Source of the DNA: Gemmatimonadales bacterium
Lineage (GTDB): Bacteria; Gemmatimonadota; Gemmatimonadetes; Gemmatimonadales; GWC2-71-9
Direction of reading: 5' to 3'
DNA: 41,639 nucleotides
Assembly (NCBI GenBank): GCA_038258395.1
Contig: JBBSPX010000002.1
Span: 1-41,639 of the forward strand
Both the position numbers and the translations under genes were made by a program. This document shows, piece by piece, positions 3,029 through 23,804 of the stretch (position 1 is the stretch's first letter; every line of letters starts with the position of its first letter). The notes under the pieces are model-generated. The model did not search any database and was not told where the DNA came from. It saw nothing but the letters and a program-made list of their open reading frames with translations.

Positions 3029-3233
3029 GTCCCGCGCGGGTCTTCATCCACATCGCGTTCGGTGCATGCGCCGGCCAAGCTCATCGAGGTACTGACCACG
3101 ATGTCGGGGCGGTATCTCGGGACGGGCGATGGAGGTAGTAGTGAATGAGGTGGGACGGAACACGTGAAGCGTCGCTAGCGCCACCCCACGGTGTGCCGTA
3201 TGCTCAGCTGTCTCCTTCCCCCGAGGCTGCACC

Positions 3234-3653: not shown

Positions 3654-3700
3654 GCGGCGACCCGCTACAATCCGACACCCTCTTTCCGCATGGAGCAATC

Positions 3701-3919
3701 ATGGCACACGACGTGGAATTCACCGTCCCTACTCGCCCGCTCGGCCGAGCGGATGTCGAGTTTGCCGTCAACAAGGATGGCGAGCTGCTGGGCACGCTCG
3801 CGGTCTCCAACGGCTCGCTGGTCTGGTTCCCGAGGTCGACGACCAATGGTCACAAGATCGGCTGGGAGGAGTTCGACCAGCTGATGAAGGAGCAGACGAC
3901 GCGGATCGAGCGGCGGTGA
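3701..3919 (+). CDS. small hypothetical protein (72 aa)
   Basis: ATG at 3701 is preceded by GGAG (3692-3695). The sequence is MAHDVEFTVPTRPLGRADVEFAVNKDGELLGTLAVSNGSLVWFPRSTTNGHKIGWEEFDQLMKEQ. The longer 3191 start was rejected because that region is R/G-rich and overlaps the upstream gene. Confidence 0.55.
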   Translation: MAHDVEFTVPTRPLGRADVEFAVNKDGELLGTLAVSNGSLVWFPRSTTNGHKIGWEEFDQLMKEQTTRIERR

Positions 3920-3937
3920 GGGGGGGGACTCACCGCC
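3912..3937. terminator. bidirectional stem-loop between convergent genes
   Basis: ggcggtgag (3912-3920) pairs with ctcaccgcc (3929-3937), a 9-bp stem with an 8-nt G-rich loop. It spans both stop codons (TGA at 3917-3919 and tca at 3930-3932). Confidence 0.45.
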
Positions 3938-6900: not shown

Positions 6901-6956
6901 GCCGTGCCGCCCGGGGCATCGAGGAGTTGGAAGGCGCCGAAGGTGGTGAGGTACAT
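3930..6956 (-). CDS. SARP/BTAD-family transcriptional regulator fused to an AAA ATPase, one TM helix and a large extracytoplasmic C-terminal domain
   Basis: Start reset to MYLTTFGAFQLL (cat at 6954-6956). It has a winged-helix/BTAD region (LLDLLWANLPPDRGRHALRQTLHSLRRVLG, FEEWRDEEAERLHRMW), Walker A GEAGIGKSRL and Walker B VMLDDLHWAD. The TM helix is VAAVAALVTVLLGGAEAWSWW, followed by about 330 aa of unknown fold. Confidence 0.85.
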   Translation of the reverse strand: MYLTTFGAFQLLDAPGGTALLPAGKPLALLIYLQANGGEATRDQLLDLLWANLPPDRGRHALRQTLHSLRRVLGAEQLESNADLIRLKPGVGSDRNEFLEAFRVGNTDRVADLYQGRFLSGLAIPGGARFEEWRDEEAERLHRMWRSSSETAIGAALDRGDHEAAIAQSIQTRELDPHHQPFWRLLVGAHVQAGNSRAARHEVEALQHALTTRGIQPQRATVDLIDRWVRHRSNGAAHQAHDPLAHPDLVGRTSEFTRLLGAWQHATAGQRTLVHIEGEAGIGKSRLLQALVERLTDLPAPVAVCRAVSGGRHYPFSFLAATLDQLARLSGAAGIDQSTAATLVRIVPTLQSVFPGAPAPHEGTPDSHQLLSCTTDLVRTLMDEQPIAVMLDDLHWADPASLEILGIVVARLEGAPLLVVTTSRQSGGLPGVPSGHIVLTALDCEGITDLLAQLGDVPESDEAWLVGQLADSTAGTPLLLLEALRTLQSIGAIVLRGEVLAIRDRTAVAAALQGRAPVRQRVLGLPDGSRRILESIAIAGHPVPRALIAQFVPSSIDVTQSLETLELAGLVREGAQGWEASHDRYAEAALGELPDDRRTALHRTIAGALARVDGPERGRALIRALGHAVDANDDTLFPDLARRWIAHQREQRVTGRAEHLLKQFAASAGAQAKLPALRRGLPWTHGPLARVAAVAALVTVLLGGAEAWSWWMDQPASLRLENTPAMFPRDTDHPAIWNEVSALLTVRNRRGEVSTKLDGQPLHLTSVLGLDSVSRSDAMVVTDGSVIASAFQLWAPSGYDSLVASFGVGKLATKPLVLARGYDHHALSIHSGIVNGQELGRDKPTIRVAPGERISGRVVLRYDTPTIPVLWFAARSSTFPTTARDTASVSSLITGATAGTLGAMIEMTAPTAPGSYWLVWAQAAEPAAQWIFSRTNWACLTAVWDDGNDLLQVPDSVLRHAWGGGRIDGTRLLCPDDRPRYEDPTFTAVATVQVIVTDSAPAEVVAGR

Positions 6957-7516
6957 GACGTCCGATGGGTCAGCGGGGTGGGAGGACCGCACAAGTGTAT
7001 GCGTTGCGCGACAGCTGGGGAAGGAATCACAGAAAGCTCGCGTCCACGGAATACCATGGTGGGCAAGCGTTTGACGACCCCTGACGCCGGATGACACGAT
7101 CGGAACCGCACTTGCGGACCGGTGGCGCCGTGCAAGCATTCCCCGGCTTTCGCCCCCTGCTCCGTGTGCTGGTCCGGAGGTCGGCGGGCGTGTGATGACC
7201 TGAGTGGTGCGCCCCCGGCCATGAACCTCGGCATCACACGACCTGTCGGCGGGCCAGGACTCAGCAGAGGTCCTGGCCCCGTCCGCTCTGGTCCCAGTGT
7301 CACACCCCATTCGCAGATTTTTCGGGCCTGACGCGGCAGACTCTACCGTGCAGGATGCCGGGTTCGGGCGACATCTGCGAGCGCGCGAGAGTACGGCAAG
7401 TCGTTATCCGGCAACCGGTTGTCGCCGAATGACACCGATTGAATGTGATGGCACAGCGTTCGCATAATCATTTGGCAAGGTATTCCCTTCCCCCCCCGCA
7501 ATTCAGGAGCAGCTGC

Positions 7517-8050
7517 ATGCGCTCACGCCTGATCGGATTCACCCTCGCACTCACGACCCTCGCCCCCCTGACCGCGACGGCGCAGAATGCTCAGACTCGG
7601 AGCGGCTTCTGGTTCAACGTCGGACTCGGTTATGGCTCGCTCGGCTGCCAGGATTGTACGAGTCGTGAGGGTGGCCTGAGTGGCCAGCTCTCGCTCGGTG
7701 GAACGCTGAGCCGGCATGTCTATCTCGGTGTCGGCACCAGCGGATGGACCAAGTCGGAGGACGGCGTCACGCTCTCGGTGGGCGCCCTGACCGCGCTGGT
7801 TCGCGTCTACCCCTCATCGACCGGTGGGTTCTTCCTGACGGGTGGGCTGGGTGTCGGCCGTGTCGACCTCTCGATCGACGGACTTGGGACCGGCGGCGAA
7901 AGCGGCACCGCGGCACTGCTGGGGATCGGCTACGACTTCAGGGTCGGCCGGAACGTGAGCCTGACGCCGTATTGGAACGGCTTCGCCGTGAGTCACGATG
8001 TGGGCGACGCGAATGTCGGTCAGCTCGGGCTCAGTGTGACGGTTCATTAG
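7517..8050 (+). CDS. small outer-membrane beta-barrel protein
   Basis: ATG at 7517 is preceded by AGGAG (7505-7509). It has the signal peptide MRSRLIGFTLALTTLAPLTATAQ and an alternating G/hydrophobic strand pattern (GFWFNVGLGYG, LLGIGYDFRVG, LGLSVTVH). Confidence 0.65.
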   Translation: MRSRLIGFTLALTTLAPLTATAQNAQTRSGFWFNVGLGYGSLGCQDCTSREGGLSGQLSLGGTLSRHVYLGVGTSGWTKSEDGVTLSVGALTALVRVYPSSTGGFFLTGGLGVGRVDLSIDGLGTGGESGTAALLGIGYDFRVGRNVSLTPYWNGFAVSHDVGDANVGQLGLSVTVH

Positions 8051-8378
8051 TGGTGATGCGGCGGTCGTGATTTTGGAGGAGGGTGTTCTGACGGGGTGTC
8101 CGCATACGACCGGAATAGTCCGATCGGTGATCAAGGAGTGGGCGGGGAGGACCAAGGAGGCGATGTGACGAGTAGGGTGCTGCATCTATGCTCCGTATCC
8201 TTTATTTGGTGGCCTTGGCCTGAATCCTCTACGATTACCGCACTATGGCTCTTGTGGATTCCACTGCAAGCAAAGGCTTCGCTGAGTCAAGACTGGCAGC
8301 CACCGGCAGCACCTTTCCCTCCGCTGGTATAACGGAGTTGCCAAACAATCCCCCAGTCCATTGGGAGGGTCTCGCACG

Positions 8379-9875
8379 ATGAGCCGAATCCAACTCATCC
8401 CACCAGCAGCGTCCTTGATGGGATCGATGCGCGGTGTGGGCTACGACGCCAAAACTGCAGTCGCAGATCTCATTGACAATTCGATCTCAGCCGATGCGCG
8501 AATTGTTTGGCTCAGCTTCAACTGGGCCGGGGCAGGTTCCACGGTTGGTATCCTTGATGACGGGCACGGCATGAGTCCCGAGGAGCTCGAGAGGGCGATG
8601 ACCCTCGGGAGTTCTCACCCGAAGAAGAAGCGGGATGCTGGTGATCTTGGGCGCTTTGGATTGGGTCTCAAGACTGCGTCTCTATCTCAGTGCAAACGCT
8701 TCATGGTCGCAACCAAGAGAGAGGGGCAGCCGATCGTCCTGATGGTTTGGGACTTGGATGTAGTCGAAGCGACCAACGATTGGGTCGTCGAGTCGACCTG
8801 CAGAGAAGCAGAGCGCAGTGCGCTTGAGCGCCTTGAGGGGCTGCATCACGGCACCTTGGTGCTTTGGAGCAATTTGGATCGGTTGCTAGGTGAAGAACTG
8901 ACTGAAGACGCGGGGTTGGTGCGAGACTTTCAGCGCATTGCAAGTGAGGTGGAGACACATCTGGAGATGACTTTCCATCGCTTCCTTGAGGGGCCGTCCC
9001 CAAGTCTCCGACTGTATATCAACGGAACTGACGACGAGTTTCGCGTCAAATCCTGGGATCCGTTCTATCAGCGCAATCCCGCTACTCAGCAGCTCCCGAC
9101 CGCAAGACGGGGCACACGCGGAGGGCAGATCGAGCTCCAAGGGTATGTGTTACCACACAAGGATCGGGTCCCTTCGAGCGAAGCAGAAATGGCGTCCGGA
9201 CCGAACGGGTGGATCGGGCAACAAGGATTCTATGTCTATCGGAACCGACGCCTCTTAGTGGCTGGTTCGTGGCTGGGGCTCGGGCGCCCTCGGCGGTGGG
9301 GCCGTGACGAGCAACACAAGCTTGCGAGGATCCGTCTCGATTTACCCAATTCAATGGACGCTACGTGGGCGCTCAACATCACAAAATCCACGGCAAAGCC
9401 CCCTCCCGCGCTCCGCGAATGGCTCACACGGATGGCGGAACAAGTCAGAGACCCCGCCCGCGAGGTTTTTGTTCACCGGGGACAACGGGCCACTCCTGGC
9501 CCGAAGGCCACCTACCACCCGCTCTGGTTGGCAGGTAGCGGCATGGCGCCGGTCTACTACATCAATCGGGACCATCCAACCGTGAAGGCGTTCATTGACG
9601 GAAGCGGTACCATTGGGATTCGTGCCCTATTGACGTTGTTGGAGTCTACTGTGCCGGTCCATCGGATCTGGCTCGACGTCTCCGACAAGCCCGAGGCTCC
9701 TCGCCCAGCCTCGACACAAGTAGCGGAAAAGGACATTCTCGCCCTTGCGCGAGACTTGGTGCGAAGCCTGATGGGTCAGGCAACGATCTCGCGAGAGCGC
9801 GCGGTGGCACAACTTCGGTCGATTGAGCCGTTTGACCAGTTTCCCCATATCCTCGCCGAGTTGGAGTCAGAATGA
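8379..9875 (+). CDS. GHKL-superfamily (HATPase_c_3, MutL/MORC-like) ATPase; first gene of the four-gene cassette
   Basis: ATG at 8379 sits about 10 nt after GGGAGGG. Bergerat-fold motifs are present: ADLIDNSISAD (N box), LDDGHGM (G1) and GRFGLGLKTAS (G2). Confidence 0.9.
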   Translation: MSRIQLIPPAASLMGSMRGVGYDAKTAVADLIDNSISADARIVWLSFNWAGAGSTVGILDDGHGMSPEELERAMTLGSSHPKKKRDAGDLGRFGLGLKTASLSQCKRFMVATKREGQPIVLMVWDLDVVEATNDWVVESTCREAERSALERLEGLHHGTLVLWSNLDRLLGEELTEDAGLVRDFQRIASEVETHLEMTFHRFLEGPSPSLRLYINGTDDEFRVKSWDPFYQRNPATQQLPTARRGTRGGQIELQGYVLPHKDRVPSSEAEMASGPNGWIGQQGFYVYRNRRLLVAGSWLGLGRPRRWGRDEQHKLARIRLDLPNSMDATWALNITKSTAKPPPALREWLTRMAEQVRDPAREVFVHRGQRATPGPKATYHPLWLAGSGMAPVYYINRDHPTVKAFIDGSGTIGIRALLTLLESTVPVHRIWLDVSDKPEAPRPASTQVAEKDILALARDLVRSLMGQATISRERAVAQLRSIEPFDQFPHILAELESE

Positions 9876-12682
9876 GATTGAGCCCAGAAGCGTTCCCCCT
9901 CCTCAACGTCGTCCGCATCTTCCTTTCCGGGGAGGCACGCGACGGAACTCTTCTCGACCGTCAGCACATCACCCAGACGGTAGAACGATTTGCTCCGATC
10001 GCCGGTCCCGGGCTGGATGCCCGCGACCTCGATGTGGTGATCAGTGAGCTGGAGAAGAGCTTCAATGTGTGGTCCGGTCGAGCTGGGGCTTTGCTGGGGA
10101 ATGATCCGGGCTATCAAGCTTGGTTGCCGGGCCGCAAGAGCGACGTGGATTGGCGGTTTTGGAATCGATACCGCCTGTTCATAGCCGGGAAGTTCCCACC
10201 ACGAGTTGTGGAGGAAATGGACAGCGTCACCGACGAGGTACTCGGCTATCTCGAAAATCCCGATCGAGTTGGAGCATGGCGCCGACATGGCTTGGTTGTC
10301 GGCCACGTCCAATCAGGGAAGACCGCGAATTATACTGGACTGATCTGCAAGGCAGCCGATGCGGGATATAAAGTCATCGTCGTACTGGCAGGAATTCACA
10401 ACAGTCTACGCTCCCAGACACAAATCCGACTAGACGAGGGCTTTCTCGGATATGCTCGGCCGTTTGACGGGAGCACAGCGCACGGAACGCCTGTCGGTGT
10501 TGGGCTCATCGATCCCAGTGTGATTGCGGATACGGTGACCACACGTGACGACCGGGGAGACTTCAGCGCACCCAAAGCACAGGGGTTCCAGATTCACGCC
10601 GGAGGGAACGTACTCTTGTTCGTCGTGAAGAAGAACGCTTCCGTGCTCAAGAATCTCCTCACGTGGGCTGAACTCAACGCGAAAACGACGACAGCGTCCG
10701 GTAGAAGGGTTGTCTCAGACGTTCCCCTGCTCGTAATCGATGATGAGGCAGATCAGGCTTCGATTGACACCAATCACCAAGTGTTTGACGAACACGGGTG
10801 CCCCGATCCTGACCATGACCCCAAGCCTATCAACAAGCTCATCCGCAGTGTTCTGCAACGATTCGAAAAGGCTGCATACATCGGGTACACGGCAACTCCG
10901 TTTGCGAACGTATTCATTCACCATCGCGGTGAGACCGACAAGCTCGGGCCCGATCTGTTTCCAAAACACTTCATTGTCAACCTCGCTGCTTCGACAGACT
11001 ATTTCGGGCCCGCCAAGGTGTTCGGCTTTGCAGAATCGATGTTGCCAACCCATGGAACTGTCCCGAGTCGCCTCCGATTCATCTCGGATGCGGAAGAGTG
11101 GTCACCACCATCCCACAAGAGCAGCTTGGTGCCGCGCTATAGGGGCAAGGACGGACTGCCACCATCCCTGCAGAAGGCGATCAGATCATTCATCCTCTCC
11201 TCTGCCGCTCGCCGGGCGCGCGGTCAAGAGCGAACTCACAAGTCGATGCTGGTCCACGTCACGCGATTCACGGATGTTCAGCGAATCGTGCATCGCCAAG
11301 TGCACAGATTTGTCGAGGAATTGCGCAATAGGTGGCGGAGCCGGTCGACGACCGCCGGAGAGACTGTGTTGGAGGACTTCCGGACTATGTGGCAACATGA
11401 TTTTGTCGCGACCTCACGTGCTCACGGCGGAAATGTGCCAAGCTGGGATCTTGTCGAACCCCACATTTGGCCGATTCTTGAAGTGGTAAAAGTGAACTTG
11501 ATCAATGCGAAAGCCAGCGATGCGCTGATCTACCAGGAGCACTCCAGGGATGGACTGCACGTCATCGCCATCGGCGGCGACAAGTTGTCGCGGGGCTTGA
11601 CGCTCGAAGGGCTAAGTGTCAGTTTTTTCCTACGTGCTTCACGCATGTATGACACCCTGATGCAAATGGGGCGGTGGTTCGGTTACCGCCCTGGGTACGA
11701 AGACCTCTGTCGCCTCTACCTCTCCGAAGAGCTCTCAAACTGGTACACCCACATCGTGGAGGCGTCCGAGGAATTGCGTGCAGAATTCGATCGGATGGTC
11801 CTCGAAAATGGCACACCGGAGGATTACGGATTTCGTGTTCGTACCCATCCCGTGTTGGCAATAACTGGGAAACTCCGCCCAGGGCTCAGGGAGATCACAA
11901 CGTCGCTGAGTGCAACCCCATTCGAGCCGACAATTCTCCGCGAGGACCGGGTGCTCGAAAACTGGGACTCCACCCTCGCCTTTCTGGGTTCCATCAGCGC
12001 AGCGCCGACGGTAGGTTTCCAGGCTGACGATTCAGGGGCAGAGGAACGGCGAGGTTCATGGCCTGGATCGGTCCTCTGGAGGGATGTCCCTGGGAGCCGC
12101 GTACTTGAATTCCTGAGGCGCTACAGCTTTGCGGACCAAGATCTCACTCGAACGCCATCGAGCGTTGTCCGAGACTACATCACTCAACGGATCGGTGAAG
12201 GTGAACTGACAGCATGGACTGTTGTACTCCTCGGCAAGCTCGACCCAGATGACAAGAACCCGTCAGTGCCGTACGGTATTGACGCCGTGCCGGACGGATT
12301 CCAGACTCTCTTTCGGAAGTACCACGGTACGATGCGAGCCGACCGGTACGTTGTGAAGCGAACTGGCAGCCCGAAGGACGAGGCCATCGACCTGACTCCT
12401 ACGGAATGGAAGCAAGTGGTTGAGCAGCGGAGTCGACTGTCCAAGTCCGTGGACGACGCCAAAGAGTACCGACTTGGCCGTCTTATTCGCCAAGCCCGCC
12501 CCGCGAGCCGTGCTCTCCTCATCCTCTATGCTCTGACGCCGTCGGAGAAGAAGCTGCCGAATGGGGTGGCAGTGCCAATGATCGCGCCATACATCAGTTT
12601 CCCGTATTCGAAAGCGGCATCCCCTATTACCTACAAACTGACAGCTCTTTACTGGGAGCAAGAATTGAGTGGGTCGGAATGA
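9872..12682 (+). CDS. Z1-domain protein (SF2 helicase-like ATPase)
   Basis: ATGA overlap with the upstream gene (9872-9875). It has Walker A GHVQSGKTANY, a DEAD-like box LLVIDDEADQAS, and the Z1 signature GGDKLSRGLTLEGLSVSFFLRASRMYDTLMQMGRWFGYRPGYEDLCRLY. Confidence 0.9.
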   Translation: MRLSPEAFPLLNVVRIFLSGEARDGTLLDRQHITQTVERFAPIAGPGLDARDLDVVISELEKSFNVWSGRAGALLGNDPGYQAWLPGRKSDVDWRFWNRYRLFIAGKFPPRVVEEMDSVTDEVLGYLENPDRVGAWRRHGLVVGHVQSGKTANYTGLICKAADAGYKVIVVLAGIHNSLRSQTQIRLDEGFLGYARPFDGSTAHGTPVGVGLIDPSVIADTVTTRDDRGDFSAPKAQGFQIHAGGNVLLFVVKKNASVLKNLLTWAELNAKTTTASGRRVVSDVPLLVIDDEADQASIDTNHQVFDEHGCPDPDHDPKPINKLIRSVLQRFEKAAYIGYTATPFANVFIHHRGETDKLGPDLFPKHFIVNLAASTDYFGPAKVFGFAESMLPTHGTVPSRLRFISDAEEWSPPSHKSSLVPRYRGKDGLPPSLQKAIRSFILSSAARRARGQERTHKSMLVHVTRFTDVQRIVHRQVHRFVEELRNRWRSRSTTAGETVLEDFRTMWQHDFVATSRAHGGNVPSWDLVEPHIWPILEVVKVNLINAKASDALIYQEHSRDGLHVIAIGGDKLSRGLTLEGLSVSFFLRASRMYDTLMQMGRWFGYRPGYEDLCRLYLSEELSNWYTHIVEASEELRAEFDRMVLENGTPEDYGFRVRTHPVLAITGKLRPGLREITTSLSATPFEPTILREDRVLENWDSTLAFLGSISAAPTVGFQADDSGAEERRGSWPGSVLWRDVPGSRVLEFLRRYSFADQDLTRTPSSVVRDYITQRIGEGELTAWTVVLLGKLDPDDKNPSVPYGIDAVPDGFQTLFRKYHGTMRADRYVVKRTGSPKDEAIDLTPTEWKQVVEQRSRLSKSVDDAKEYRLGRLIRQARPASRALLILYALTPSEKKLPNGVAVPMIAPYISFPYSKAASPITYKLTALYWEQELSGSE

Positions 12683-13674
12683 CGGAGGCTACTGAGGTCT
12701 TCCGCGAACTCCTTTCCTCGATGCCGGATGCTGCTGGGCGTGGCTACCGTGCCTTTGGTGGGCCGGACGGGATGACGGCTGTGGCGTTCATTGACGGAGC
12801 GACCAAGCGGCCCGGCCTTGAACTCAAGTTCCGTACGAAGTCCATACCTCGAGATTTTCAGATCCCCCTGATGCGCGGGGCGCTGGTCTCCCGCAGCCTC
12901 CAACCGTCGGGGGCAGATGCGGTCACAAGCTTCGAGATTATGGCCGCAGGAAGCGAGCACGCCGAAGTCTTTACCGAATTGGCAAGCCGACTGATCGCGG
13001 ACTGCTGTGCGGCCCAATCGTCCGGCGTGGCGCTACAGACAGTTTCGCGTCGATTGTCAGCATGGGTGCGATTCTTCAGTACTCGGGGGCCGGACGGCTT
13101 GTCGCGTACTGCAGAGCTGGGTCTCGTGGGTGAATTGCTTTGCCTCAAGGCGATAGCTCCCCACACGGGCCTCCCCGCTGCGGTGCTCGCGTGGCAGGGG
13201 CCCAGTGGTGGCCCACATGATTTTGTTCTTCACGGCGGTGGAGTGGAAGCGAAGTTGACTACATCAAGTGCCCCGGAGGTCATTCACATCTCTTCGGTCC
13301 GCCAACTTGATGAGTCCGTCTTGGACTTCTTGCTGCTCTTCGTTGTATTGGCCCAAGAGGTGCCTGAAGGCGTCTCGCTATCCAGACTTGTTGCGGAACT
13401 CCGCCAAGAGCTATCGGGGCGGGATCCAGCCGCGCGAAGTCACTTCGAGGATCAGCTCGTGTCGGCTGGCTGCACGGACAGCGACCTCCAGAAGGCATGT
13501 CGTGCGCTGCACTTCCACCGCCAAGAGTTCCTCCGCGTTGGTGGCGATTTTCCGCGAATTCTTCCGGGCGAAATTCGCACGGGCGTCGGGTCCGTTCGCT
13601 ATGACATTAGCTGGGGGGTCATTGCCCCCTATCGACTGGAAGGTGACCAATTGGAGACTCTTCTCAATGGATGA
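12679..13674 (+). CDS. PD-(D/E)XK motif protein (predicted restriction-endonuclease-fold nuclease)
   Basis: ATGA overlap with the Z1 gene (12679-12682). The candidate nuclease core is GGPHDFVLHGGGVEAKLTT (D ... E-x-K). Confidence 0.75.
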   Translation: MTEATEVFRELLSSMPDAAGRGYRAFGGPDGMTAVAFIDGATKRPGLELKFRTKSIPRDFQIPLMRGALVSRSLQPSGADAVTSFEIMAAGSEHAEVFTELASRLIADCCAAQSSGVALQTVSRRLSAWVRFFSTRGPDGLSRTAELGLVGELLCLKAIAPHTGLPAAVLAWQGPSGGPHDFVLHGGGVEAKLTTSSAPEVIHISSVRQLDESVLDFLLLFVVLAQEVPEGVSLSRLVAELRQELSGRDPAARSHFEDQLVSAGCTDSDLQKACRALHFHRQEFLRVGGDFPRILPGEIRTGVGSVRYDISWGVIAPYRLEGDQLETLLNG

Positions 13675-15745
13675 TTCCGTTGCCGCATGCCGAGACTTTG
13701 CCGAACAGCTGAACACGGAAGTTCGTGAGCGGGCAGCCTTGGGGGAGCCCTATTCCACGGAACTCGAATGCTTCGCGAGCAACGTCCTGACGCTGTTCGA
13801 AGAGGCAGGCGTTGTGGAGGATCCTGAGGTGTGCGTGCGTGGCGGGACACTTGGACGGGCCAAGTGGGAAATCGCAGGATGGGCCTTCCCGCCTTCGGAG
13901 GAGGAAGATCTCTCCCAATTGTCAGTGCTCGCCGTGCTCTTCCATGACGACCCCGAGATGCCGCCAGCATCTGGTGCGGAGCTCCGGCGACGGGGAGAGC
14001 TCGGGGTTCACTTCATCCGTGAAATGCTGGCCGGCCGAGCGGACGAGCTGGAGCCTGCGGCCGATGCCGCAGCTCTTGGTCGCATTATCCATGAACGACG
14101 GCACGCTCTGACACGTGTGCAGATTCATCTTGCTACCGACGGAATGACTCAGAGGCTTCGCGAAATTGAACCGGTGGATATCGATGGCGTTCAGGTCACC
14201 TGCAGCATCTGGGATATTGAGCGGCTGAGCCGGCTTGGTGATGCCTGGCAGGAAGATATCGAAATTGATGTTCCTTCCATGCTCGATGGGCAGGGGTTGC
14301 CGTGTTTGCGCGTGCCGGAAGAGGACCCCCACTACGACGCGTACCTGTGCGTTGTACCTGGGGTCTTGCTGTACAAGGCCTATGAGCAGTATGGGCAGCG
14401 GCTCTTGGAGCTGAACGTCAGGTCCTTCTTGTCAGGTACAAATAAGGTCAACAAGGGGATCCGTGAGACAATCCGAACCACTCCAGAACGATTCTTCCCC
14501 TACAATAATGGACTTGCTTTGACGGCCCGGAGCGTCGAGCTGCGGCAGACTGCCACAGGCCACTCAGAAATCACCCGGATCGTCGGGTTGCAGGTTGTCA
14601 ACGGCGGCCAAACCACCGTCTCTATCCATCGGGCGTGGAAGCTGGACAAGATGGAGGCGAATGTCAGGCAAGTCTTTGTACAGGGCAAGTTGACCGTCAT
14701 TACCACGGCCGAGGGTGATGGTGAAGGATTTGTGGAGATGGTTCGGAGCATCTCAAAGTTCGCCAACAGCCAGAGCGCTGTGCGGGCAGACGACCTAGAG
14801 GCCAACCAACCTTGGCATATTCTGTTCGAGAAGTTGTCTCGGGCTGTATGGACCCCAGACGCTCAGTCACACTGGTTCTACGAGCGGGCCCGGGGATCCT
14901 ATTCAGTTGCCAAGGCAAAGGATGCAACAACACACGCTCAGAAGGCTGCCTTCGACAGGTTGTGGCCGCGGAGACAACTCATTACGAAAGTAGATCTCGC
15001 CAAAGCGGTAAATGCATGGAATCAGCAGCCACAAACGGTCAGCCTAGGTAGCCAGAAGAACTTCAAGGCGTTTATGCACCAGCTTGGAACCCAGGTGCAC
15101 ACACCAAGGCTGGATGAGGACCTGTTCAAGCACATCATCGGACAGGTGATCGTCCTTCGCGAAGCAACAAAGTTGGTGCGCGACTTGAAGAACAGCATCC
15201 CGGCCTTCCGTGCGAACGTAGTCGCCTATTTGGTCAGCTATTTGTCGTTCCGGCTTCCGAATGGGCTCGATTTCAAGCGTATTTGGGAGCAACAGGAAAT
15301 GCCGTCGGCGGTCCGCGACACACTGAGCGCCTGGGCAGAGCCAATCTACGATACGATGGTTGTGTCTGCCGGGGGGCGCAATCTGTCGGAGTGGTCGAAG
15401 AAGGACGGGTGCTGGGAGGCGGTGAAGCACCTCGATCTCAGCCCAACGAGCGACCTCGACCGGCACGCCGCCACCGATGGAACGGGAAAGGCAGTCGGCT
15501 TGGTAGATGCGGCTGAGGCGGGGGAGATCTCCGAGTGCACCTCACTGACACTCGAAGAGTGGGACAGTCTGCTAAAGTGGGGCCATGAAGCTGAAAACTT
15601 GCACTGGAAAGTTCAGGGGATCATCAACACACTGCGTTCCTACGCTCTCCAAGGATGGAAGAAGCCACCGAGTGTCAAGCAGGCACGCAGCGCAGCAAAG
15701 GCGATTCGGAGCTGGAAGGAGGATGTCGGAACGGGCTCGCCCTAG
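13667..15745 (+). CDS. AIPR (abortive-infection phage-resistance) family protein
   Basis: Start reset to MDDSVAAC (ATG at 13667), an 8-nt overlap (ATGGATGA) with the upstream stop. AIPR-type signatures FFPYNNGLALTA and GLQVVNGGQTTVSIHRA are present. Confidence 0.85.
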   Translation: MDDSVAACRDFAEQLNTEVRERAALGEPYSTELECFASNVLTLFEEAGVVEDPEVCVRGGTLGRAKWEIAGWAFPPSEEEDLSQLSVLAVLFHDDPEMPPASGAELRRRGELGVHFIREMLAGRADELEPAADAAALGRIIHERRHALTRVQIHLATDGMTQRLREIEPVDIDGVQVTCSIWDIERLSRLGDAWQEDIEIDVPSMLDGQGLPCLRVPEEDPHYDAYLCVVPGVLLYKAYEQYGQRLLELNVRSFLSGTNKVNKGIRETIRTTPERFFPYNNGLALTARSVELRQTATGHSEITRIVGLQVVNGGQTTVSIHRAWKLDKMEANVRQVFVQGKLTVITTAEGDGEGFVEMVRSISKFANSQSAVRADDLEANQPWHILFEKLSRAVWTPDAQSHWFYERARGSYSVAKAKDATTHAQKAAFDRLWPRRQLITKVDLAKAVNAWNQQPQTVSLGSQKNFKAFMHQLGTQVHTPRLDEDLFKHIIGQVIVLREATKLVRDLKNSIPAFRANVVAYLVSYLSFRLPNGLDFKRIWEQQEMPSAVRDTLSAWAEPIYDTMVVSAGGRNLSEWSKKDGCWEAVKHLDLSPTSDLDRHAATDGTGKAVGLVDAAEAGEISECTSLTLEEWDSLLKWGHEAENLHWKVQGIINTLRSYALQGWKKPPSVKQARSAAKAIRSWKEDVGTGSP

Positions 15746-15766
15746 TGTAGCAAATCCCTCCTGTAT

Positions 15767-16010
15767 ATGGCCGCCGAGATGAGACTGCACTGCACCACGA
15801 TCGCCCGCATCAGGCCAGCACACGGCCTGCAACCGCATCGTGTCACGTCCTTCACGCTCTCGCGCGACCCCCACTTCGTCGCCAAGCTGGGTGATGTCGT
15901 CGGCTTGTACGTCAATCCAGCAGCGCGGGTGGTGATCCTTTCGTTCGAAGAGAAAAGCCAGATCCAAGCGCTTGATCAGACCCCGGCGGGCCTCCCGCTC
16001 GAGCGCGGCA
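15767..16010 (+). pseudogene. IS630-family transposase fragment (N-terminal/linker part only, no DDE domain)
   Basis: The translation TIARIRPAHGLQPHRVTSFTLSRDPHFVAKLGDVVGLYVNPAARVVILSFEEKSQIQALDQTPAGLPLERGK matches the conserved IS630 region (...HGLKPHR..TFKLS.DP.F..K..DVVGLY..PP......DEKSQIQALDRTQP.LP...G). Similarity stops around 16010 and no catalytic domain follows. Confidence 0.7.
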
Positions 16011-16065
16011 AGTGGGCAGCATCAGCGTCACACGCGGCAAAGGTAGCTTGCGCCCCACCTCTTCC

Positions 16066-16078
16066 TGACTTAAAGTCA
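16066..16078. promoter_or_regulatory. 13-bp palindrome TGACTTAAAGTCA immediately upstream of the HTH-methyltransferase start (candidate autoregulatory operator)
   Basis: Perfect 6-bp arms around a central A, ending 5 nt before ATG 16084. Its function is inferred from the HTH fusion only. Confidence 0.3.
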
Positions 16079-16083
16079 TCCAT

Positions 16084-17352
16084 ATGTCCCTCCGAACAGA
16101 AGCCGAAATCACCCCAGCAGCTCGCCTTCGGGCCTTGCGCGTCGATCTCGGGCTCACTCAAGCCCAAGCCGCGGAACTTGTCGACTATTCCGAACGCCAG
16201 ATTGCACGCTGGGAATCGGGGGAGGCACCAGTTCGTTCCGTCGTGCTGACAGCCTTGGAGTCGCATCGTGACCGAACTCGGGACGAGGAATCGAACTTCA
16301 CCTTCATCGACCTCTTCGCCGGGATCGGCGGATTTCACCTCGGCTTCAAGAGTGCGGGCGGACGCTGTGTTTTTACCTCCGAGTGGGACAAGTTCTCGAC
16401 GATAACGTACAAGCGTAATTTTCCTGGACACCGCATCCACGGAGACATCCGTACCGTCGAGGCGACCGACATCCCGGACCACGATGTGCTTCTTGCAGGC
16501 TTCCCGTGCCAGCCGTTCAGCATAGCCGGTGTGTCCAAGAAGAACTCACTTGGTCGGAAGCATGGCTTCGAGTGCGACACACAAGGCACCCTCTTCTTTG
16601 ACATCGAACGCATCATCGCGGAGAAGCAACCTCGCGCGTTCGTGCTCGAGAACGTGAAGAACCTGATGTCTCACGACCGAGGCAATACATTCGCGGTGAT
16701 CGTTCACACCCTCCGTGAGAAGCTCGGTTACAAGCTCTCGTGGCAAGTCCTCGACGCCCAGCACTGGGTGCCCCAACATCGGGAACGAGTCTTCCTGGTC
16801 GGCTTGCATCCTGATCTCGGAGCGAAGTTCGATTTCGACGAAGTCATCATCCCGGACGAAGGGCCCTTGCTCAGGAGCATCCTCCATCCGACCGACGGAT
16901 CTGGTCCGGTTGAAGAGCCTTATACCGACAAGGCCGGAAGACCGAACAAGAAGTACGTCCTTTCCGATCACCTCTGGGGCTATCTCCAGGACTATGCATC
17001 GAAACACAAGGCGAAAGGCAACGGATTCGGGTTCGGCATGGTCACGGCGCAGGGAGTCTCACGGACCCTTTCCGCACGATATCACAAGGACGGTTCGGAG
17101 ATCCTGATCAACCGTGGGCGAGGCAACCCCAGGCGCCTGACCCCTCGCGAATGCGCACGCCTGATGGGATTCGATCGGACGGGGTACGAACCCTTCAAGA
17201 TCGAAGTCTCCGACACGCAGGCGTACCGCCAGTTCGGCAATGCCGTTGCTGTCCCGGTGGTGTCGGCCGTCGCCAAGGCACTCGCGCCCTACCTTCGTGG
17301 TGAACGGACCGGCCATGGTATCGAGGCGGCGATGGAGCTCGAGCTCGTCTGA
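16084..17352 (+). CDS. dcm: DNA (cytosine-5)-methyltransferase with N-terminal XRE-type HTH domain
   Basis: The HTH is LRALRVDLGLTQAQAAELVDYSERQIARWESG. C5-MTase motifs are all present: I DLFAGIGGFHLG, IV GFPCQPFS, VI ENVKNL, VIII QHRERVFLVG, X QFGNAVAVPVV. Confidence 0.95.
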   Translation: MSLRTEAEITPAARLRALRVDLGLTQAQAAELVDYSERQIARWESGEAPVRSVVLTALESHRDRTRDEESNFTFIDLFAGIGGFHLGFKSAGGRCVFTSEWDKFSTITYKRNFPGHRIHGDIRTVEATDIPDHDVLLAGFPCQPFSIAGVSKKNSLGRKHGFECDTQGTLFFDIERIIAEKQPRAFVLENVKNLMSHDRGNTFAVIVHTLREKLGYKLSWQVLDAQHWVPQHRERVFLVGLHPDLGAKFDFDEVIIPDEGPLLRSILHPTDGSGPVEEPYTDKAGRPNKKYVLSDHLWGYLQDYASKHKAKGNGFGFGMVTAQGVSRTLSARYHKDGSEILINRGRGNPRRLTPRECARLMGFDRTGYEPFKIEVSDTQAYRQFGNAVAVPVVSAVAKALAPYLRGERTGHGIEAAMELELV

Positions 17353-17354
17353 CG

Positions 17355-17759
17355 ATGGCCGACATCGTCGATCGCGCGACCCGCAGTCGAATGATGAGTG
17401 GGATCCGTGGTCGGGATACCGCACCTGAATTGATCGTCCGATCACATCTTCACCGGGCCGGGCTTCGTTTCCGTCTCCACCAGAATGACTTGCCCGGTCG
17501 ACCCGATCTGGTTCTGTCGCGTTGGGATACCGTGGTTCTAGTCCACGGCTGCTTCTGGCATCGTCATGCAGGTTGTCGGTACGCGACGACCCCAGCGAGC
17601 AATCGTCAGTTCTGGCAGGCAAAGTTCCAAGCGAACGTCGAACGCGATATTCGGAATCGTGCGGAACTCCGGAAGCTGGGCTGGCGGGTATTCACCGTCT
17701 GGGAGTGCCGGACCGGCACTCGAGCGCTTGATTCTCTCGTGAGAAAGATCCGTCGATGA
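17355..17759 (+). CDS. vsr: very-short-patch repair endonuclease (T:G mismatch, 5mC deamination repair)
   Basis: RSRMMSGIRGRDTAPELIVRSHLHRAGLRFRLHQNDLPGRPDLVL...VLVHGCFWHRH...FWQAKFQANVERDIRNRAELRKLGWRVFTVWEC is collinear with E. coli Vsr. The gene starts 2 nt after the dcm stop. Confidence 0.95.
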   Translation: MADIVDRATRSRMMSGIRGRDTAPELIVRSHLHRAGLRFRLHQNDLPGRPDLVLSRWDTVVLVHGCFWHRHAGCRYATTPASNRQFWQAKFQANVERDIRNRAELRKLGWRVFTVWECRTGTRALDSLVRKIRR

Positions 17760-19006
17760 GTGAACAGTCTGCCGAACTTCTGGAGTTCGAGCACTGGTTG
17801 CTTGAAGTCTCCGGCCCCGAGTGGCTCTGGCACGTCAAGTACCTGGCGGCAAACGACACCTGCGCGAAGTCCAATGTGCACCAGAGTGGACCGCATATCA
17901 GCAGGGCACTCATCACCACGGCTTTCCCCGCACTTACCGCTCGGGCCGAGCGGATCAAGAATCCTGACTTGATTCTGCCGACCGTCGTCGATAGCCACAC
18001 GGAGTCGATGGATCTCCGACTGGTCTGGTACAACACCAAGCGAGTCGAGAGCAAGAAGAACGGTCGAGACGAGGCTCGATTGACCAGGTGGGGTGGTCAG
18101 GATTCTGCCGTGGTTCAGTCTGATGCCACCGGTTCACTGGTGGTGTTCGCATTCCGGCTGCAACCTGGCCGGGATGCTGATGCGCTTCGCGTCTGGCGAT
18201 GTCGATCCATCGAGGAGGAAGACTTTCTGCTCGAACGGATCGACACCGTCGAACCCGGGCGTGGCCAGCTCATCAGTCCGACGGGTTCCTACCTCGGGCA
18301 TGAGGCGGCTGGGCCATGTGCACTCACCGACGATGAGATCCCCGAAGAGTGGCGGACAGCATTCCCTCCGGGAGACGCGATCGTCCAATGGGTGATCCGG
18401 AATCGTCGTGATGCCGGTCGGCCGGTCGACAAGCGTCTGCTGTCACGGCGGGACTGTGAGTTCGAAGTGTTCCGATCCATCGAGCGGTTCCACGCCATGC
18501 CGCGAATCAAGAATGGATTCACATCAGTGGATGCCTTTGTCGAGTTCGCTGGTTCCCTCACGAATCGCCGCAAGTCGCGCAGCGGCAGGTCACTCGAACT
18601 TCAGGTCAAGCAGATTTTCGACGAGGAAGGCGTCCCCTATAGTTGGACACCAAAGACGGAGCATGGTAAGACGCCAGACTTCATCTTCCCTTCGATCGAC
18701 TCATACCATGATGCATCCTGGCCCGCGGAACGACTCCGAATGCTGGCGGCCAAAACAACCTGCAAGGACCGATGGAGGCAGGTGATCAATGAGGCAGACC
18801 GGATCGGCCTCAAGCACCTGCTCACCCTACAGCAGGGCGTATCCTTCGCCCAACATTCGGAGATGCGCCAGGCAGGAGTTCGCCTCGTCGTGCCCAACGG
18901 ACTGGTCAAGTCATATCCTGATGAAGTCGTCCCCGAGCTGATGTCGCTGGAGCACTTCATGGCGGACGTGCGATCGACCTGCGGTTCGAGAGATGAGATG
19001 CACTAA
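17756..19006 (+). CDS. EcoRII-family type II (IIE/IIP-like) restriction endonuclease
   Basis: ATGA overlap with vsr. The N-terminal effector domain is FEHWLLEV...HVKYLAANDTCAKSNVHQSG (compare EcoRII FHNWLLEI...YIKRLSANDTGATGGHQVG). The C-terminal catalytic region is NRRKSRSGRSLELQ...KTPDFIFPS...LRMLAAKTTCKDRWRQVINEADRI...LLTLQQGVS...GVRLVVP, nearly collinear with EcoRII (NRRKSRAGKSLELH...KKPDFLFPS...LRMLAVKTTCKDRWRQILNEADKI). Confidence 0.9.
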   Translation: MSEQSAELLEFEHWLLEVSGPEWLWHVKYLAANDTCAKSNVHQSGPHISRALITTAFPALTARAERIKNPDLILPTVVDSHTESMDLRLVWYNTKRVESKKNGRDEARLTRWGGQDSAVVQSDATGSLVVFAFRLQPGRDADALRVWRCRSIEEEDFLLERIDTVEPGRGQLISPTGSYLGHEAAGPCALTDDEIPEEWRTAFPPGDAIVQWVIRNRRDAGRPVDKRLLSRRDCEFEVFRSIERFHAMPRIKNGFTSVDAFVEFAGSLTNRRKSRSGRSLELQVKQIFDEEGVPYSWTPKTEHGKTPDFIFPSIDSYHDASWPAERLRMLAAKTTCKDRWRQVINEADRIGLKHLLTLQQGVSFAQHSEMRQAGVRLVVPNGLVKSYPDEVVPELMSLEHFMADVRSTCGSRDEMH

Positions 19007-19010
19007 CCCC

Positions 19011-19517
19011 CTACCTCCGCGGCACCAACCCCTCATGCCCCCACTCCGCGAGCGCCGCCAGGATCGGCTGCCAATCACCCGGCGCGATGTCGGGCACCGG
19101 CTCCAATCCCTTCAACCCGATCGGCTGTCCCCAGCCCTGCTCCCGGATCGCCTTCTCGAGTATCCCGAACGGCGGCAACGGCTCATCGCGCATCGACCGA
19201 TGCGCACATTGGCCACAGGTGGTGCAGTAGCCGACCAGCAGTTCGTGGTCCTGTTCGGTCCCGAACTCGAGCGGATACACCCACCCGTCGCAGACCGGAC
19301 ACGGTCCGCCCGCGGTCGCCCCCATCCCCCAGACCCGCGTGAGCAGCCCGACCGAGAGCGGGCCGATGCCGTGCAGCGTGAACCCGCCCACGGCCACACC
19401 AGGACAGTGCTTCATCAGCTTGAACGATGACTTGTGAATGGCACCCAGCACACGCGCGTGCTGCAGCGAGACAACGTCGGTCGCGGTCCACGGCGAGTCG
19501 GTTTGTTCGAGAGACAT
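19011..19517 (-). CDS. hypothetical protein with CxxC...CxxC zinc-ribbon-like motif
   Basis: Start reset to MSLEQTDSPW (cat at 19515-19517). It contains CPVCDGWVYPLEF...YCTTCGQC. I recognise no family. G+C is high, like the flanking chromosome. Confidence 0.5.
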   Translation of the reverse strand: MSLEQTDSPWTATDVVSLQHARVLGAIHKSSFKLMKHCPGVAVGGFTLHGIGPLSVGLLTRVWGMGATAGGPCPVCDGWVYPLEFGTEQDHELLVGYCTTCGQCAHRSMRDEPLPPFGILEKAIREQGWGQPIGLKGLEPVPDIAPGDWQPILAALAEWGHEGLVPRR

Positions 19518-19690
19518 GGCACCCTGCTTTCGATGATCAATGCCGCCCCGTCCGCGCATCCCCCATCGTGGGGCGCCACCGTGACCCTCGGGCGAGGGGT
19601 CGGTTGGCAGGTGGCCATGCGCCACCATTCCGAATGCCCGGCCCGCCGAGGCGACAACGAACCGTATGCCAAAGATAAGGGCGTCTCGGG

Positions 19691-19927
19691 TCAGCCCTCA
19701 ACCCGGTAGACCGTCGTGTCGCCCCGATCGTAGTGCTGCATCACCCGCCAGAGATCGCCCTCGTGGACGCGATTCGTTCCCCGGAGATCGCGCTCGTTCG
19801 AGTAGATCTCGAAATACGTCCCGTCCGAGAAGACCAGGATGACCTTGGCCTTCGGCTGAAGATCGCTCTCCTGCACCACCACCGCCTCGATCGTCCGACC
19901 CGGCAACGCCTGCCAATCACCCTTCAT
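19691..19927 (-). CDS. small conserved hypothetical protein (78 aa), paralog A
   Basis: MKGDWQALPGRTIEAVVVQESDLQPKAKVILVFSDGTYFEIYSNERDLRGTNRVHEGDLWRVMQHYDRGDTTVYRVEG, with GGAG upstream. The substitutions relative to paralog B are mostly synonymous, which supports a real coding gene. Confidence 0.65.
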   Translation of the reverse strand: MKGDWQALPGRTIEAVVVQESDLQPKAKVILVFSDGTYFEIYSNERDLRGTNRVHEGDLWRVMQHYDRGDTTVYRVEG

Positions 19928-19952
19928 CGTGGCTCCGTGGTTGGGGGTATGT
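19691..19952. repeat. direct repeat copy A (about 262 bp: 78-aa gene plus its 25-nt leader)
   Basis: Aligns base-for-base with 23542-23804. I count about 12 mismatches across the 237-nt CDS by eye. Confidence 0.9.
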
Positions 19953-20142
19953 CTCGGAGAGCTCGTACCGCGCGAGACACCACTCCGAACGGCAACTGAC
20001 GGGGTCGTGCTGGGGGCGAGCGAGGAGGCCCCGCCGCACGGCGCTTCGCGCCGCGGGCGGGGAGGCGCCGAACTGGAGCCCACCATCCCGAGCGGAGCGG
20101 CGAGATCCCTCGACTCCGCGCCAGAGGCGCGTCGCTCGGGAT

Positions 20143-20161
20143 GACGGCGCCGTAGGCGCCG

Positions 20162-20163
<2 letters not shown>
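20143..20163 (-). terminator. stem-loop overlapping the kinase stop codon
   Basis: gacggcgcc-gta-ggcgccgtc forms a perfect 9-bp stem. There is no U-tract. It sits next to a REP-like palindrome (cccgagcg...cgctcggg, about 20083-20140). Confidence 0.35.
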
Positions 20164-22912
<2,749 letters not shown>

Positions 22913-23503: not shown

Positions 23504-23541
23504 ACGCTCGGAGAAGAGAGCCTGCCTTCCGGCGTCCCCGC

Positions 23542-23778: not shown

Positions 23779-23804
23779 GCTGACTCCGTGGTTGGGGGGT
23801 ATGT
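23542..23804. repeat. direct repeat copy B (about 263 bp)
   Basis: Same orientation as 19691-19952. Similarity ends at ...ccgtggttgggg(g)gtatgt, upstream of the ATG. Confidence 0.9.

Follow-up and report, generated by a model that had tools for sequence, protein, structure and literature searches.

The 41,639-nt stretch of Gemmatimonadales DNA analysed here (contig JBBSPX010000002.1, positions 1 to 41,639; referred to as the window) contains a block of low G+C content that lies between an outer-membrane beta-barrel protein (OMP) gene and a convergent gene, ORF19011 (ORF, open reading frame). The block consists of two sets of genes with a transposase remnant between them. The first set, module 1, is a four-gene cassette that encodes homologues of MzaB, MzaC, MzaD and MzaE of the Mza system, and the second, module 2, encodes a Dcm-type C5-cytosine methylase, a Vsr repair endonuclease and an EcoRII-type restriction endonuclease (the triad). 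An earlier note on this DNA, made from its letters alone, had described the block as an island joining an Mza-like cassette to an EcoRII-type restriction-modification (R-M) system, and had proposed that both effectors might read one methyl mark. We compared the locus with related contigs and loci, which carry our labels L001 to L178, and examined where the block is inserted, whether its modules share a history and how well the proposal of a common mark agrees with the distribution of these genes. The coordinates of the features are given in Table 1.

Table 1. Features of the low-G+C block and its flanks in the window
Feature	Position	Strand	Evidence or remark
OMP gene, conserved left anchor of the slot	7439..8050	+	weak Pfam OMP_b-brl match; G+C at third codon positions (GC3) 0.76, host-like
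Variable hotspot cargo, 10.9 kb, low G+C	8088..19005	.	L176 alignment and G+C
MzaB-type GHKL (MutL/MORC-like) ATPase	8379..9875 (longest ORF from TTG 8361)	+	Pfam HATPase_c_3 3e-32; PADLOC MzaB 1.7e-127; NCBIfam MzaB 1e-149
MzaC-type superfamily 2 (SF2) helicase with Z1 domain	9872..12682	+	Pfam Z1 8e-81; PADLOC MzaC 3e-216
MzaD-type DUF4420 protein, predicted PD-(D/E)XK nuclease	12679..13674	+	Pfam DUF4420 1e-50; PADLOC MzaD 1e-19; NCBIfam MzaD 5e-43
MzaE-type AIPR protein (AIPR_N and AIPR)	13667..15745	+	Pfam AIPR 1.5e-80, AIPR_N 2.5e-25; PADLOC MzaE 1.6e-100
IS630-family transposase remnant, ~82 of ~300 codons, between the modules	15767..16012	+	NCBIfam NF033545 positions 94-169 of 299, E 2e-8
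Perfect 6-1-6 palindrome TGACTT-A-AAGTCA	16066..16078	.	5 nt upstream of methylase ATG; candidate operator for the helix-turn-helix (HTH) domain of the methylase
C5-cytosine methylase, Dcm/M.EcoRII type, N-terminal Xre-type HTH	16084..17352	+	Pfam DNA_methylase 2e-84, HTH_31/HTH_3
Vsr very-short-patch repair endonuclease	17355..17759	+	Pfam Vsr 3e-26; TIGR00632 135.8 bits, cut-off 97.85
EcoRII-type (Type IIE) restriction endonuclease	17756..19006	+	Pfam EcoRII-N 4e-26, EcoRII-C 2e-64
Conserved hypothetical gene (ORF19011), right anchor of the slot	19011..19628	-	homologues 82-92% identity

The left 7.4 kb of the block is occupied by four co-directional genes in the order B-C-D-E, and matches to the PADLOC, Pfam and NCBIfam models for MzaB to MzaE confirmed that the cassette is Mza-like. 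Because the start and stop codons of successive genes overlap (9872/9875, by 4 nt; 12679/12682; 13667/13674), MzaBCDE reads as one operon. The likelier start of MzaB is the ATG at 8379, which follows GGGAGGG, rather than the TTG at 8361, and the gene call in L001, the exact 11-kb contig from the Logan assemblies that carries the island, is 498 amino acids (aa) long. The scores of MzaB, MzaC, MzaD and MzaE all fell below the NCBIfam equivalog cut-offs (499 against 850, 813 against 1500, 148 against 420 and 431 against 1050, respectively), and by this measure the four proteins are homologues, not equivalogs, of the models. MzaC retains the motifs GKT and DDEAD, and YDTLMQMGRWFGY is conserved at residues 593-605. 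All ORFs of the cassette are intact, its ratio of nonsynonymous to synonymous substitution rates (dN/dS) is 0.04-0.10, and, as judged from its sequence, the cassette is under constraint.

Enterobacter MzaA (L032) is a sigma-like protein with ankyrin repeats and a sigma-70 region. When it was used as a tblastn query, no match was found in the window, where 291 nt of non-coding DNA lie 5' of MzaB. Elsewhere, the gene immediately 5' of MzaB is MzaA in 60 of 125 loci; the window and its entire clade have no MzaA, and linkage to methylase and Vsr genes was equal with and without it.

In comparisons by sequence with solved structures (PDB), the nearest relatives of MzaB were MORC2, MORC3, MORC4 and MutL, and no structure was matched by MzaC, MzaD or MzaE. 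An AlphaFold (AF2) model of full-length MzaC, with a mean predicted local distance difference test score (pLDDT) of 79, matched generic SF2 motors only, including HsdR of EcoR124I, Res of EcoP15I, the Type ISP enzyme LlaBIII and Cas3. The C-terminal domain of MzaC (residues 668-936, 269 residues; window 11873-12682) was modelled with a pLDDT of 85.6 and a predicted template modelling score (pTM) of 0.88. A Foldseek search of the PDB retrieved nothing similar to it (best E 0.49), and the model suggests that this domain may represent an undescribed fold.

Methylase and Vsr begin 340 nt downstream of the Mza cassette. The Vsr gene starts 2 nt 3' of the methylase stop codon, and the start of the EcoRII-like gene overlaps the Vsr stop by 4 nt. 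The best NCBIfam match of the methylase was the Dcm subfamily PRK10458 (417 bits), and it is 52% identical to Dcm of E. coli K-12, an identity that continues across the variable region separating motifs VIII and IX; the target-recognition stretches GNGFGFG and RTLSARYxKDGSEILI are conserved between the two. Vsr shares 49% identity with its E. coli counterpart and keeps PGRPD and HGCFWH. The alignment of the EcoRII-like enzyme to EcoRII (1NA6; E 3.5e-92) spans the whole protein, and the catalytic PDF...KTTCKDRWRQ is kept. The identity to Dcm, together with an enzyme that has both the EcoRII-N and the EcoRII-C domain, substantiated the description of these genes as an EcoRII-type R-M system with a Dcm-like methylase, and this methylase was indeed the only one in the island. 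Because the 52% identity to Dcm includes the target-recognition region, CCWGG is the predicted, and very likely, target of module 2. That the enzyme has an EcoRII-N domain would in turn point to cleavage that requires at least two sites.

A perfect palindrome lies just upstream of the methylase gene. Similar GGAC...GTCC inverted repeats are found in the corresponding place in L169 and L168, and it is from the palindrome onwards that the window is homologous in DNA sequence to the L169 and L174 triads. Probably, the HTH domain of the methylase autoregulates the triad operon at this site.

After a 21-nt gap 3' of MzaE begins a remnant of an IS630-family insertion sequence (IS). Residues 1-82 of ORF 15767 are 61% identical to annotated rhizobial IS630 transposases, and the score against the IS630 model was 34 bits, compared with a cut-off of 100. 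Only positions 94-169 of the 299 in the model are represented, not the ~300-aa DDE transposase and terminal inverted repeats of a complete IS630. The earlier note had seen a transposase scar separating the cassette from the methylase, and the IS630 remnant is found at that joint. Homology between the window and L082, a metagenomic contig with a closely related cassette, ends at 15721, close to the 3' end of MzaE but still within the gene, and directly before the remnant.

The low G+C of the block, formerly estimated from spot counts, was supported by the computed profile. Exact counts gave 58.5% G+C for 8051-19010, 66.0% for 1-8050 and 65.5% from 19011 to the end; with the limits refined to 8088-19005, the values were 58.5% inside versus 65.6% for the remaining window. 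In 500-nt bins, mean G+C was 0.585 for the 21 bins inside the island and 0.656 for the 61 bins outside it (Mann-Whitney p = 7.6e-11), and the sliding-window profile showed a plateau of 0.56-0.61 from ~8,000 to 19,000 with 0.64-0.69 on either side. The GC3 values agreed with this, being lower in the island genes (0.61-0.71) than in flanking genes in a credible frame (0.76-0.83). The right boundary was as abrupt as had been claimed, with the stop of the EcoRII-like ORF at 19006, that of the convergent ORF at 19011 and 4 nt between them. CCWGG sites number 13 in the Mza part, compared with 22.7 expected; the flanks are also at ~0.75 of expectation, and this depletion is hence unusable as a signal.

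An independent Logan assembly of a soil metagenome contains the island and both junctions at even depth (~9.5x), which indicates that the junctions are not an assembly artefact of the window. In the reads of three metagenome runs over 5000-22000, the occupied form alone was seen, at even depth, and no joint that skips the island was found; in two of the three runs the relatives were too fragmentary to be used. There was a single close DNA match to the window, and it came from a soil metagenome. The nearest homologues were in a Gemmatimonadaceae metagenome-assembled genome (MAG) for MzaC, and in a Gemmatimonadales MAG and Gemmatimonas aurantiaca for EcoRII, from which the host would be a soil bacterium that probably belongs to the Gemmatimonadota.

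We next consider how the block is inserted. No tRNA was found in the window, and an Rfam scan gave no match. No direct repeats bracket the island; the few repeat families of 14-33 nt are scattered and chance-like, and in the promoter and terminator scan the counts were no higher than in shuffled sequence. The earlier note had stated that the window has no integrase, tRNA or flanking direct repeat, and the tRNA and repeat searches agree with it. Because seven genes and the IS remnant occupy the slot, there is no space in it for an integrase, and none of the attributes of an integrase-mediated island (an integrase or recombinase, a tRNA or tmRNA target, flanking direct repeats) was found for the slot.

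In contrast, the comparison with other contigs identified a different kind of site. A homology search with ORF19011 retrieved L176, a 16.5-kb Logan contig with a homologue that is 92% identical. L176 is 89% identical in nucleotides to window 5288-8087 and 94.7% identical to 19006-22378. Between these flanks, it carries 7.19 kb of different genes, which encode HNH, Fic, NUDIX and NOV_C proteins, an SLFN-like helicase with AAA_16, and several unknowns, and the G+C of this cargo is likewise low (62% versus 67%). The slot limits derived from L176, 8088-19005, are within 37 and 5 nt of those given in the earlier note. In L082, the Mza cassette is 78% identical to that of the window in nucleotides, and MzaC is 85% identical in amino acids. 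A homologue of ORF19011 follows the cassette there, with homology from window 19023 at 87% nucleotide identity; the left junction of L082 is off the contig, and its evidence concerns the right side only. Common flanks around different defence cargo, as expected of a hotspot flanked by core genes, were therefore found in L176 and, for the right side, in L082. These results, which come from three metagenomic contigs (the window, L082 and L176), show that a chromosomal defence-island hotspot lies between the OMP gene and ORF19011 and that 8088-19005 is what it carries at present. Rather than a single, one-off insertion, the island is one of several alternative cargoes.

The earlier note had named relatives with the same genes at native composition as evidence that would speak against an island. 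The relatives differ from this, as the Mza regions of L082, L083 and L166 have a G+C content 6-9 points below that of their flanks. Between the window and L082, the synonymous divergence (dS) of the Mza genes is 1.1-1.9, which is saturated, compared with 0.31 for the flank gene (113 codons only). The cassettes would therefore be older than the split of their hosts, and the sequences suggest allelic exchange at the hotspot site, as opposed to simple vertical descent.

Some further features of the slot and its surroundings were observed. A 719-bp piece of L176 (7403-8121), inside its hotspot cargo, is 88.6% identical to window 3207-3922 (ORF 3191-3919), which lies outside the slot and to the left of a BTAD regulator; genes thus move between the slot and its surroundings. 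The only second dip in G+C below 0.61 in the window, at 24006-25505 (0.58-0.60), contains a Fic/DOC-family gene (24144-25223, + strand; Fic_N, Fic, SoFic-like_C), and a Fic gene is also part of the alternative cargo of L176. A 274-bp direct repeat, 93% identical between 19680-19952 and 23531-23804, brackets ~3.6 kb that include a Ser/Thr-kinase/TPR gene (20162-22912), and L176 has one matching copy. A tandem repeat of ~660 bp (26774-27426 and 27453-28112; 70% identical) is located in the region of a Big_2/RCC1-repeat gene (27511-29178). Homologues of the OMP gene, 54% identical, are present in L169 (4864-5409), L174 (17912-18397) and L175 (14712-15197), other Gemmatimonadota-like contigs, where they lie a few kb from Dcm-Vsr-EcoRII triads, and it may be that a defence region next to an OMP gene is more widely conserved.

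The comparison with L082 was also informative about the origin of the two modules. Beyond the equivalent of 15721, L082 has no EcoRII; what follows the cassette there is a C5-methylase of 506 aa, encoded on the opposite strand, together with an only distantly related Vsr (38% identical) and an ORF of 131 aa. Its methylase is 27% identical to that of the window and 50% identical to that of L167, a locus with an MzaC that is 59% identical to that of the window. In L167, a 501-aa methylase, Vsr and MzaBCDE follow one another uninterrupted (6554-15913), with genes overlapping by 4 nt, and the Mza proteins are the only nuclease candidates of the operon. L167 is the clearest example of a methylase and Vsr integrated into an Mza operon. 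The relationships of the restriction enzyme point elsewhere: the EcoRII of the window is 73% identical to that of L169 and 70% identical to those of L173 and L174, compared with 52% and 46% for the Mza-linked L083 and L168. These closest triads stand alone or beside other Z1 proteins. Those of L169 and L178, the latter labelled Gemmatimonas aurantiaca, are without a Z1 protein, that of L174 adjoins a lone 648-aa Z1 protein, and that of L173 adjoins a GHKL-DUF4420-Z1 cassette with a different gene order and no AIPR. No remnant of a methylase of the ~500-aa type was found in the window.

Since L082 has an MzaC 85% identical to that of the window, and yet a methylase that is only 27% identical and no EcoRII, these sequence relationships indicate that the two modules are of separate origin and were joined secondarily by module exchange at the hotspot. 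The simplest history would be one in which the lineage of the window swapped a modification module of the L082/L167 type for the Dcm-Vsr-EcoRII triad, with the IS630 remnant marking the joint. It is conceivable that such an exchange left the cassette stranded and inactive, after the loss of its own ~500-aa methylase. The IS scar at the breakpoint, the different methylase type of the closest cassette (L082) and the lack of any trace of the ~500-aa methylase in the window all fit this idea. However, none of the four ORFs is disrupted, the catalytic motifs are present, the stop and start codons of neighbouring genes overlap, and dN/dS is low, although this value is averaged over the whole divergence. 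In addition, the Dcm-type methylase lineage is found beside intact Mza cassettes without EcoRII in L086, L022 and L009, which have Vsr, and in L166, where no Vsr was detected. We therefore consider it very improbable that the cassette is an inactive remnant.

The neighbourhoods of the related triads had features of their own. The cassette of L173 (3967-11036; also in L172) consists of GHKL (505 aa), DUF4420 (341 aa) and Z1 (967 aa) genes, in the order B-D-C and convergent with the Dcm-Vsr-EcoRII triad, and its neighbours encode HNH, REase-ARP/PDDEXK_13 and SLFN-like helicase proteins. The stand-alone triads are followed by a convergent trio of uncharacterised genes of ~240, 250-290 and 610-640 aa, one of which is a DUF6339 gene in L174. 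The trio, which the window does not have, is located at 11307-14726 in L169, 11254-14686 in L174 and 11270-14615 in L178, and these genes may constitute a partner system that has not been recognised before.

To what extent methylase, Vsr and EcoRII genes accompany Mza cassettes in general was determined in a survey of 164 loci with MzaC homologues of 37-60% identity, obtained from genome and metagenome scans, to which the close clade was added; most of the Mza loci from the scans were distant (37-48% identical). In each locus, tblastn was used to locate homologues of the seven island proteins, a search that sees only C5-methylases and Vsr proteins near enough to the queries, so that the percentages are lower bounds. 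MzaB, C, D and E were found in order in 132 loci, 64 of which had at least 5 kb on both sides (full-flank loci). A C5-methylase was present in 58 of the 64 (91%), Vsr in 55 (86%) and both in 51, and 57 loci (89%) had exactly one methylase. The methylase and Vsr occurred on either side of the cassette and on either strand, and most Mza-linked methylases were 23-35% identical to that of the window. The constant feature of Mza loci is C5-methylation chemistry plus a repair nickase, and no particular methylase. A linkage of GHKL/Z1/AIPR cassettes to C5-methylase and Vsr genes was described by Iyer, Abhiman and Aravind in 2008 (PMC2292703), as the earlier note had stated, and the survey reproduced and quantified it. 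The methylase and Vsr are thus not a peculiarity of this locus; they are the usual companions of Mza cassettes, and the unusual gene is EcoRII.

Mza was found beside an EcoRII-type triad in four arrangements. The triad is downstream of Mza and on the same strand in the window, upstream and on the same strand in L083/L084, downstream but convergent in L168, where it stands behind two unknown genes and an rve fragment, and divergent in Caulobacter L011, the single distant locus with EcoRII, where an enzyme with the EcoRII-C domain only comes after the methylase and Vsr. Within the clade of the window, the full triad was present in three of seven contexts and was arranged differently in each. The two unknown genes of L168 (9000-11746; 483 and 432 aa) have overlapping ends, follow MzaE and gave no Pfam match; they may be extra components of an Mza variant.

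Gao et al. 2020 validated an Mza system that is cited as a set of five genes (mzaABCDE) in which there is a sigma-like MzaA but no methylase gene, and as active against single-stranded DNA (ssDNA) phages. These statements come from secondary citations of that study; the papers examined describe the mechanism of Mza as unknown, and we found no mechanistic paper. The earlier note had offered, as an alternative, that the cassette is Type IV-like and was brought in independently. In such a reading, MzaBCDE would attack modified phage DNA. The second half of this alternative is supported by the module swap in L082 and the EcoRII identities, and the tested mzaABCDE, as cited, has no methylase gene. 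The first half is at odds with the survey, as a nuclease dependent on 5-methylcytosine (5mC) would conflict with the C5-methylase present at 91% of loci, whereas dependence on another modification would leave the linkage to methylases unexplained. In addition, the MzaC models showed no resemblance to folds of the SRA, EVE or YTH type. We regard a Type IV-like cassette as the least probable of the explanations considered here.

The following mechanism can be proposed, which for module 2 is derived from homology to a well-studied system. In module 2, the methylase would modify the inner cytosine of CCWGG, EcoRII, with its autoinhibitory effector domain, would cut incoming DNA that has several unmethylated CCWGG sites, and Vsr would repair the T:G mismatches that arise from 5mC deamination. 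Module 1 may be an ATP-driven, R-M-like machine composed of a MutL/MORC-type clamp, a translocase and a nuclease, from which host C5-methylation would spare the cell's own DNA. Because the locus is without a second methylase, the Dcm-type mark would probably protect against both effectors. This reading is based on the near-universal occurrence of a single methylase per locus and on the L167 operon, in which the Mza proteins are the sole nuclease candidates, and the resemblance of MzaC to R-M motors (HsdR, Res, Type ISP) and the recurrence of Mza beside an EcoRII-type triad in four arrangements support it. On these grounds, we consider it plausible, and the likeliest of the readings although with somewhat less than even confidence, that one Dcm-type mark is shared by both effectors.

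The exchange itself bears on how Mza might read such a mark. We found no segment of the Mza proteins that had been swapped together with the methylase, with window-L082 identity at 62-100% in every 40-residue window. As the methylase was swapped without an Mza segment, a sequence-specific reader inside Mza is unlikely. It is possible instead that Mza restriction is gated by 5mC chemistry and not by sequence, so that any cellular C5-methylase would license self DNA, an idea that we advance with considerable doubt. If so, the cassette could lose its own ~500-aa methylase and run on the Dcm-type mark of the EcoRII system, two effectors of different mechanism would be armed by the one methylase, and enterobacterial Mza systems devoid of a methylase would depend on the chromosomal Dcm of the host. 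Common K-12 laboratory hosts are dcm-plus, and Enterobacteriaceae have chromosomal dcm-vsr. Thus, the existence of enterobacterial Mza without a methylase does not by itself exclude dependence on 5mC.

Several observations argue against a shared mark. No known 5mC-reader fold or domain was found by sequence in the Mza proteins or by fold in the MzaC models, and the absence of a co-swapped specificity segment also weighs on this side. Neither a methylase nor Vsr was detected in 2 of the 64 full-flank loci. An EcoRII-type enzyme was present in just 1 of the 64, and in 1 of ~160 distant loci. The contigs of L083 and L168 are truncated, so that a second methylase is possible there. The stand-alone triads of L169 and L178 indicate that module 2 needs no partner, unrelated systems accumulate in hotspots in any case, and the mzaABCDE system tested by Gao et al. 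2020 is cited without a methylase gene.

Another explanation would be that the two modules are merely co-located, with a self-contained EcoRII triad and an Mza system that responds to some other sign of infection, such as phage ssDNA or replication intermediates. The solitary triads, the unrelated defence genes in the L176 slot, the cited activity of five-gene mzaABCDE against ssDNA phages, the exchange of the methylase without a matching swap in Mza and the lack of a reader fold in the MzaC models are all consistent with this view. However, co-location leaves unexplained why so many Mza loci have a C5-methylase (91%) and Vsr (86%) in varied position, orientation and lineage, why methylase, Vsr and MzaBCDE form an overlapping operon without another nuclease in L167, and why Dcm-type triads stand beside three different Z1 architectures. 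We consider co-location the main rival explanation, albeit one that is less likely than not.

A further possibility is that the C5-methylase acts as a recognition subunit that recruits MzaBCDE to unmethylated sites, in a Type III-like manner, in which case no reader would be needed in Mza. One methylase per locus, the translational coupling of the L167 methylase to MzaB through Vsr, the lack of a specificity-like Mza segment that co-varies with the methylase and the resemblance of MzaC to the Res and HsdR motors would agree with such an arrangement. On the other hand, the partner methylases are 22-30% identical across types and lie on either side and strand, which makes a conserved docking surface unlikely, and the methylase of the window belongs to triads that occur without Mza. 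It therefore appears improbable that Mza operates in this way.

Taken together, the anatomy of the locus, the hotspot and the separate histories of the two modules are conclusions that we hold with high confidence. When a shared Dcm-type mark is added to them, the combined account is in our judgement the best explanation overall, and one that is slightly better than evenly supported.

Every part of the locus is from a known family, and the linkage of Mza genes to methylase and Vsr has been in print since 2008. What is new is that a Gemmatimonadota-like lineage, from a phylum that has received little study, has a hotspot without an integrase in which the low-G+C block is one cargo among several, that a modification module was swapped beside an otherwise conserved Mza cassette, that Z1-family cassettes were joined with Dcm-Vsr-EcoRII triads repeatedly and independently of one another, and that the slot containing an EcoRII triad and Mza has a single methylase. 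The locus bears on how Mza distinguishes self from non-self. If Mza is gated by C5-methylation, the linkage reported in 2008 would be explained, and one mark would license two effectors. If Mza is independent of methylation, the locus would be an ordinary pile-up of two known systems.

Module 2 resembles the EcoRII R-M system (Type IIE, CCWGG) in having a full-length R.EcoRII homologue in which the two domains and the catalytic motif are present. It is like the E. coli dcm-vsr pair in the adjacency of methylase and Vsr. It differs from both in that the genes of the window form one co-directional methylase-Vsr-enzyme operon, and the methylase differs from E. coli Dcm in having an Xre-type HTH instead of the Dcm N-terminus. 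C5-methylases of the SsoII/Ecl18kI type have a regulatory N-terminal HTH. The methylase of the window is like them in the fusion of an HTH N-terminally to the catalytic domain and in the palindrome just 5' of the gene, whereas its catalytic part is of the Dcm type and its autoregulation is predicted from the sequence.

Compared with the Mza system represented by mzaABCDE (PADLOC, NCBIfam NF041932-35), the cassette has homologues of MzaB to MzaE in the same order, on one strand and with overlapping ends. In contrast to that system, the window is without the sigma-like ankyrin protein MzaA, has a C5-methylase and Vsr within the slot, and encodes four proteins that are all below the equivalog cut-offs. 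The paraMORC/Z1-helicase operons of Iyer 2008 (PMC2292703) share with it a GHKL ATPase, an SFII helicase, a restriction endonuclease (RE)-fold protein and AIPR, with a methylase and Vsr nearby, and the helicase motif DThhQXuRhFG given there corresponds to YDTLMQMGRWFGY in MzaC of the window. In that report, EcoRII-like nucleases were named for the SWI2/SNF2 operon class and not for the Z1 class, and the window differs from those operons in having a complete EcoRII-type enzyme that is translationally coupled to the methylase and Vsr.

BREX and DISARM offer a possible analogy, as in these systems a methylase marks self DNA and a multi-protein set of ATPase, helicase and nuclease hits unmarked DNA; the proteins are not homologous to those of the window, save for a generic DrmMII-like score of the methylase. 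Finally, integrase-free defence hotspots between conserved core genes occur in Pseudomonas and E. coli. The site described here is like them in its conserved flanks, its alternative defence cargoes, the lower G+C of the cargo and the lack of an integrase, tRNA or direct repeat, and it differs from them in belonging to a Gemmatimonadota-like lineage, in which it is represented by three metagenomic contigs only.

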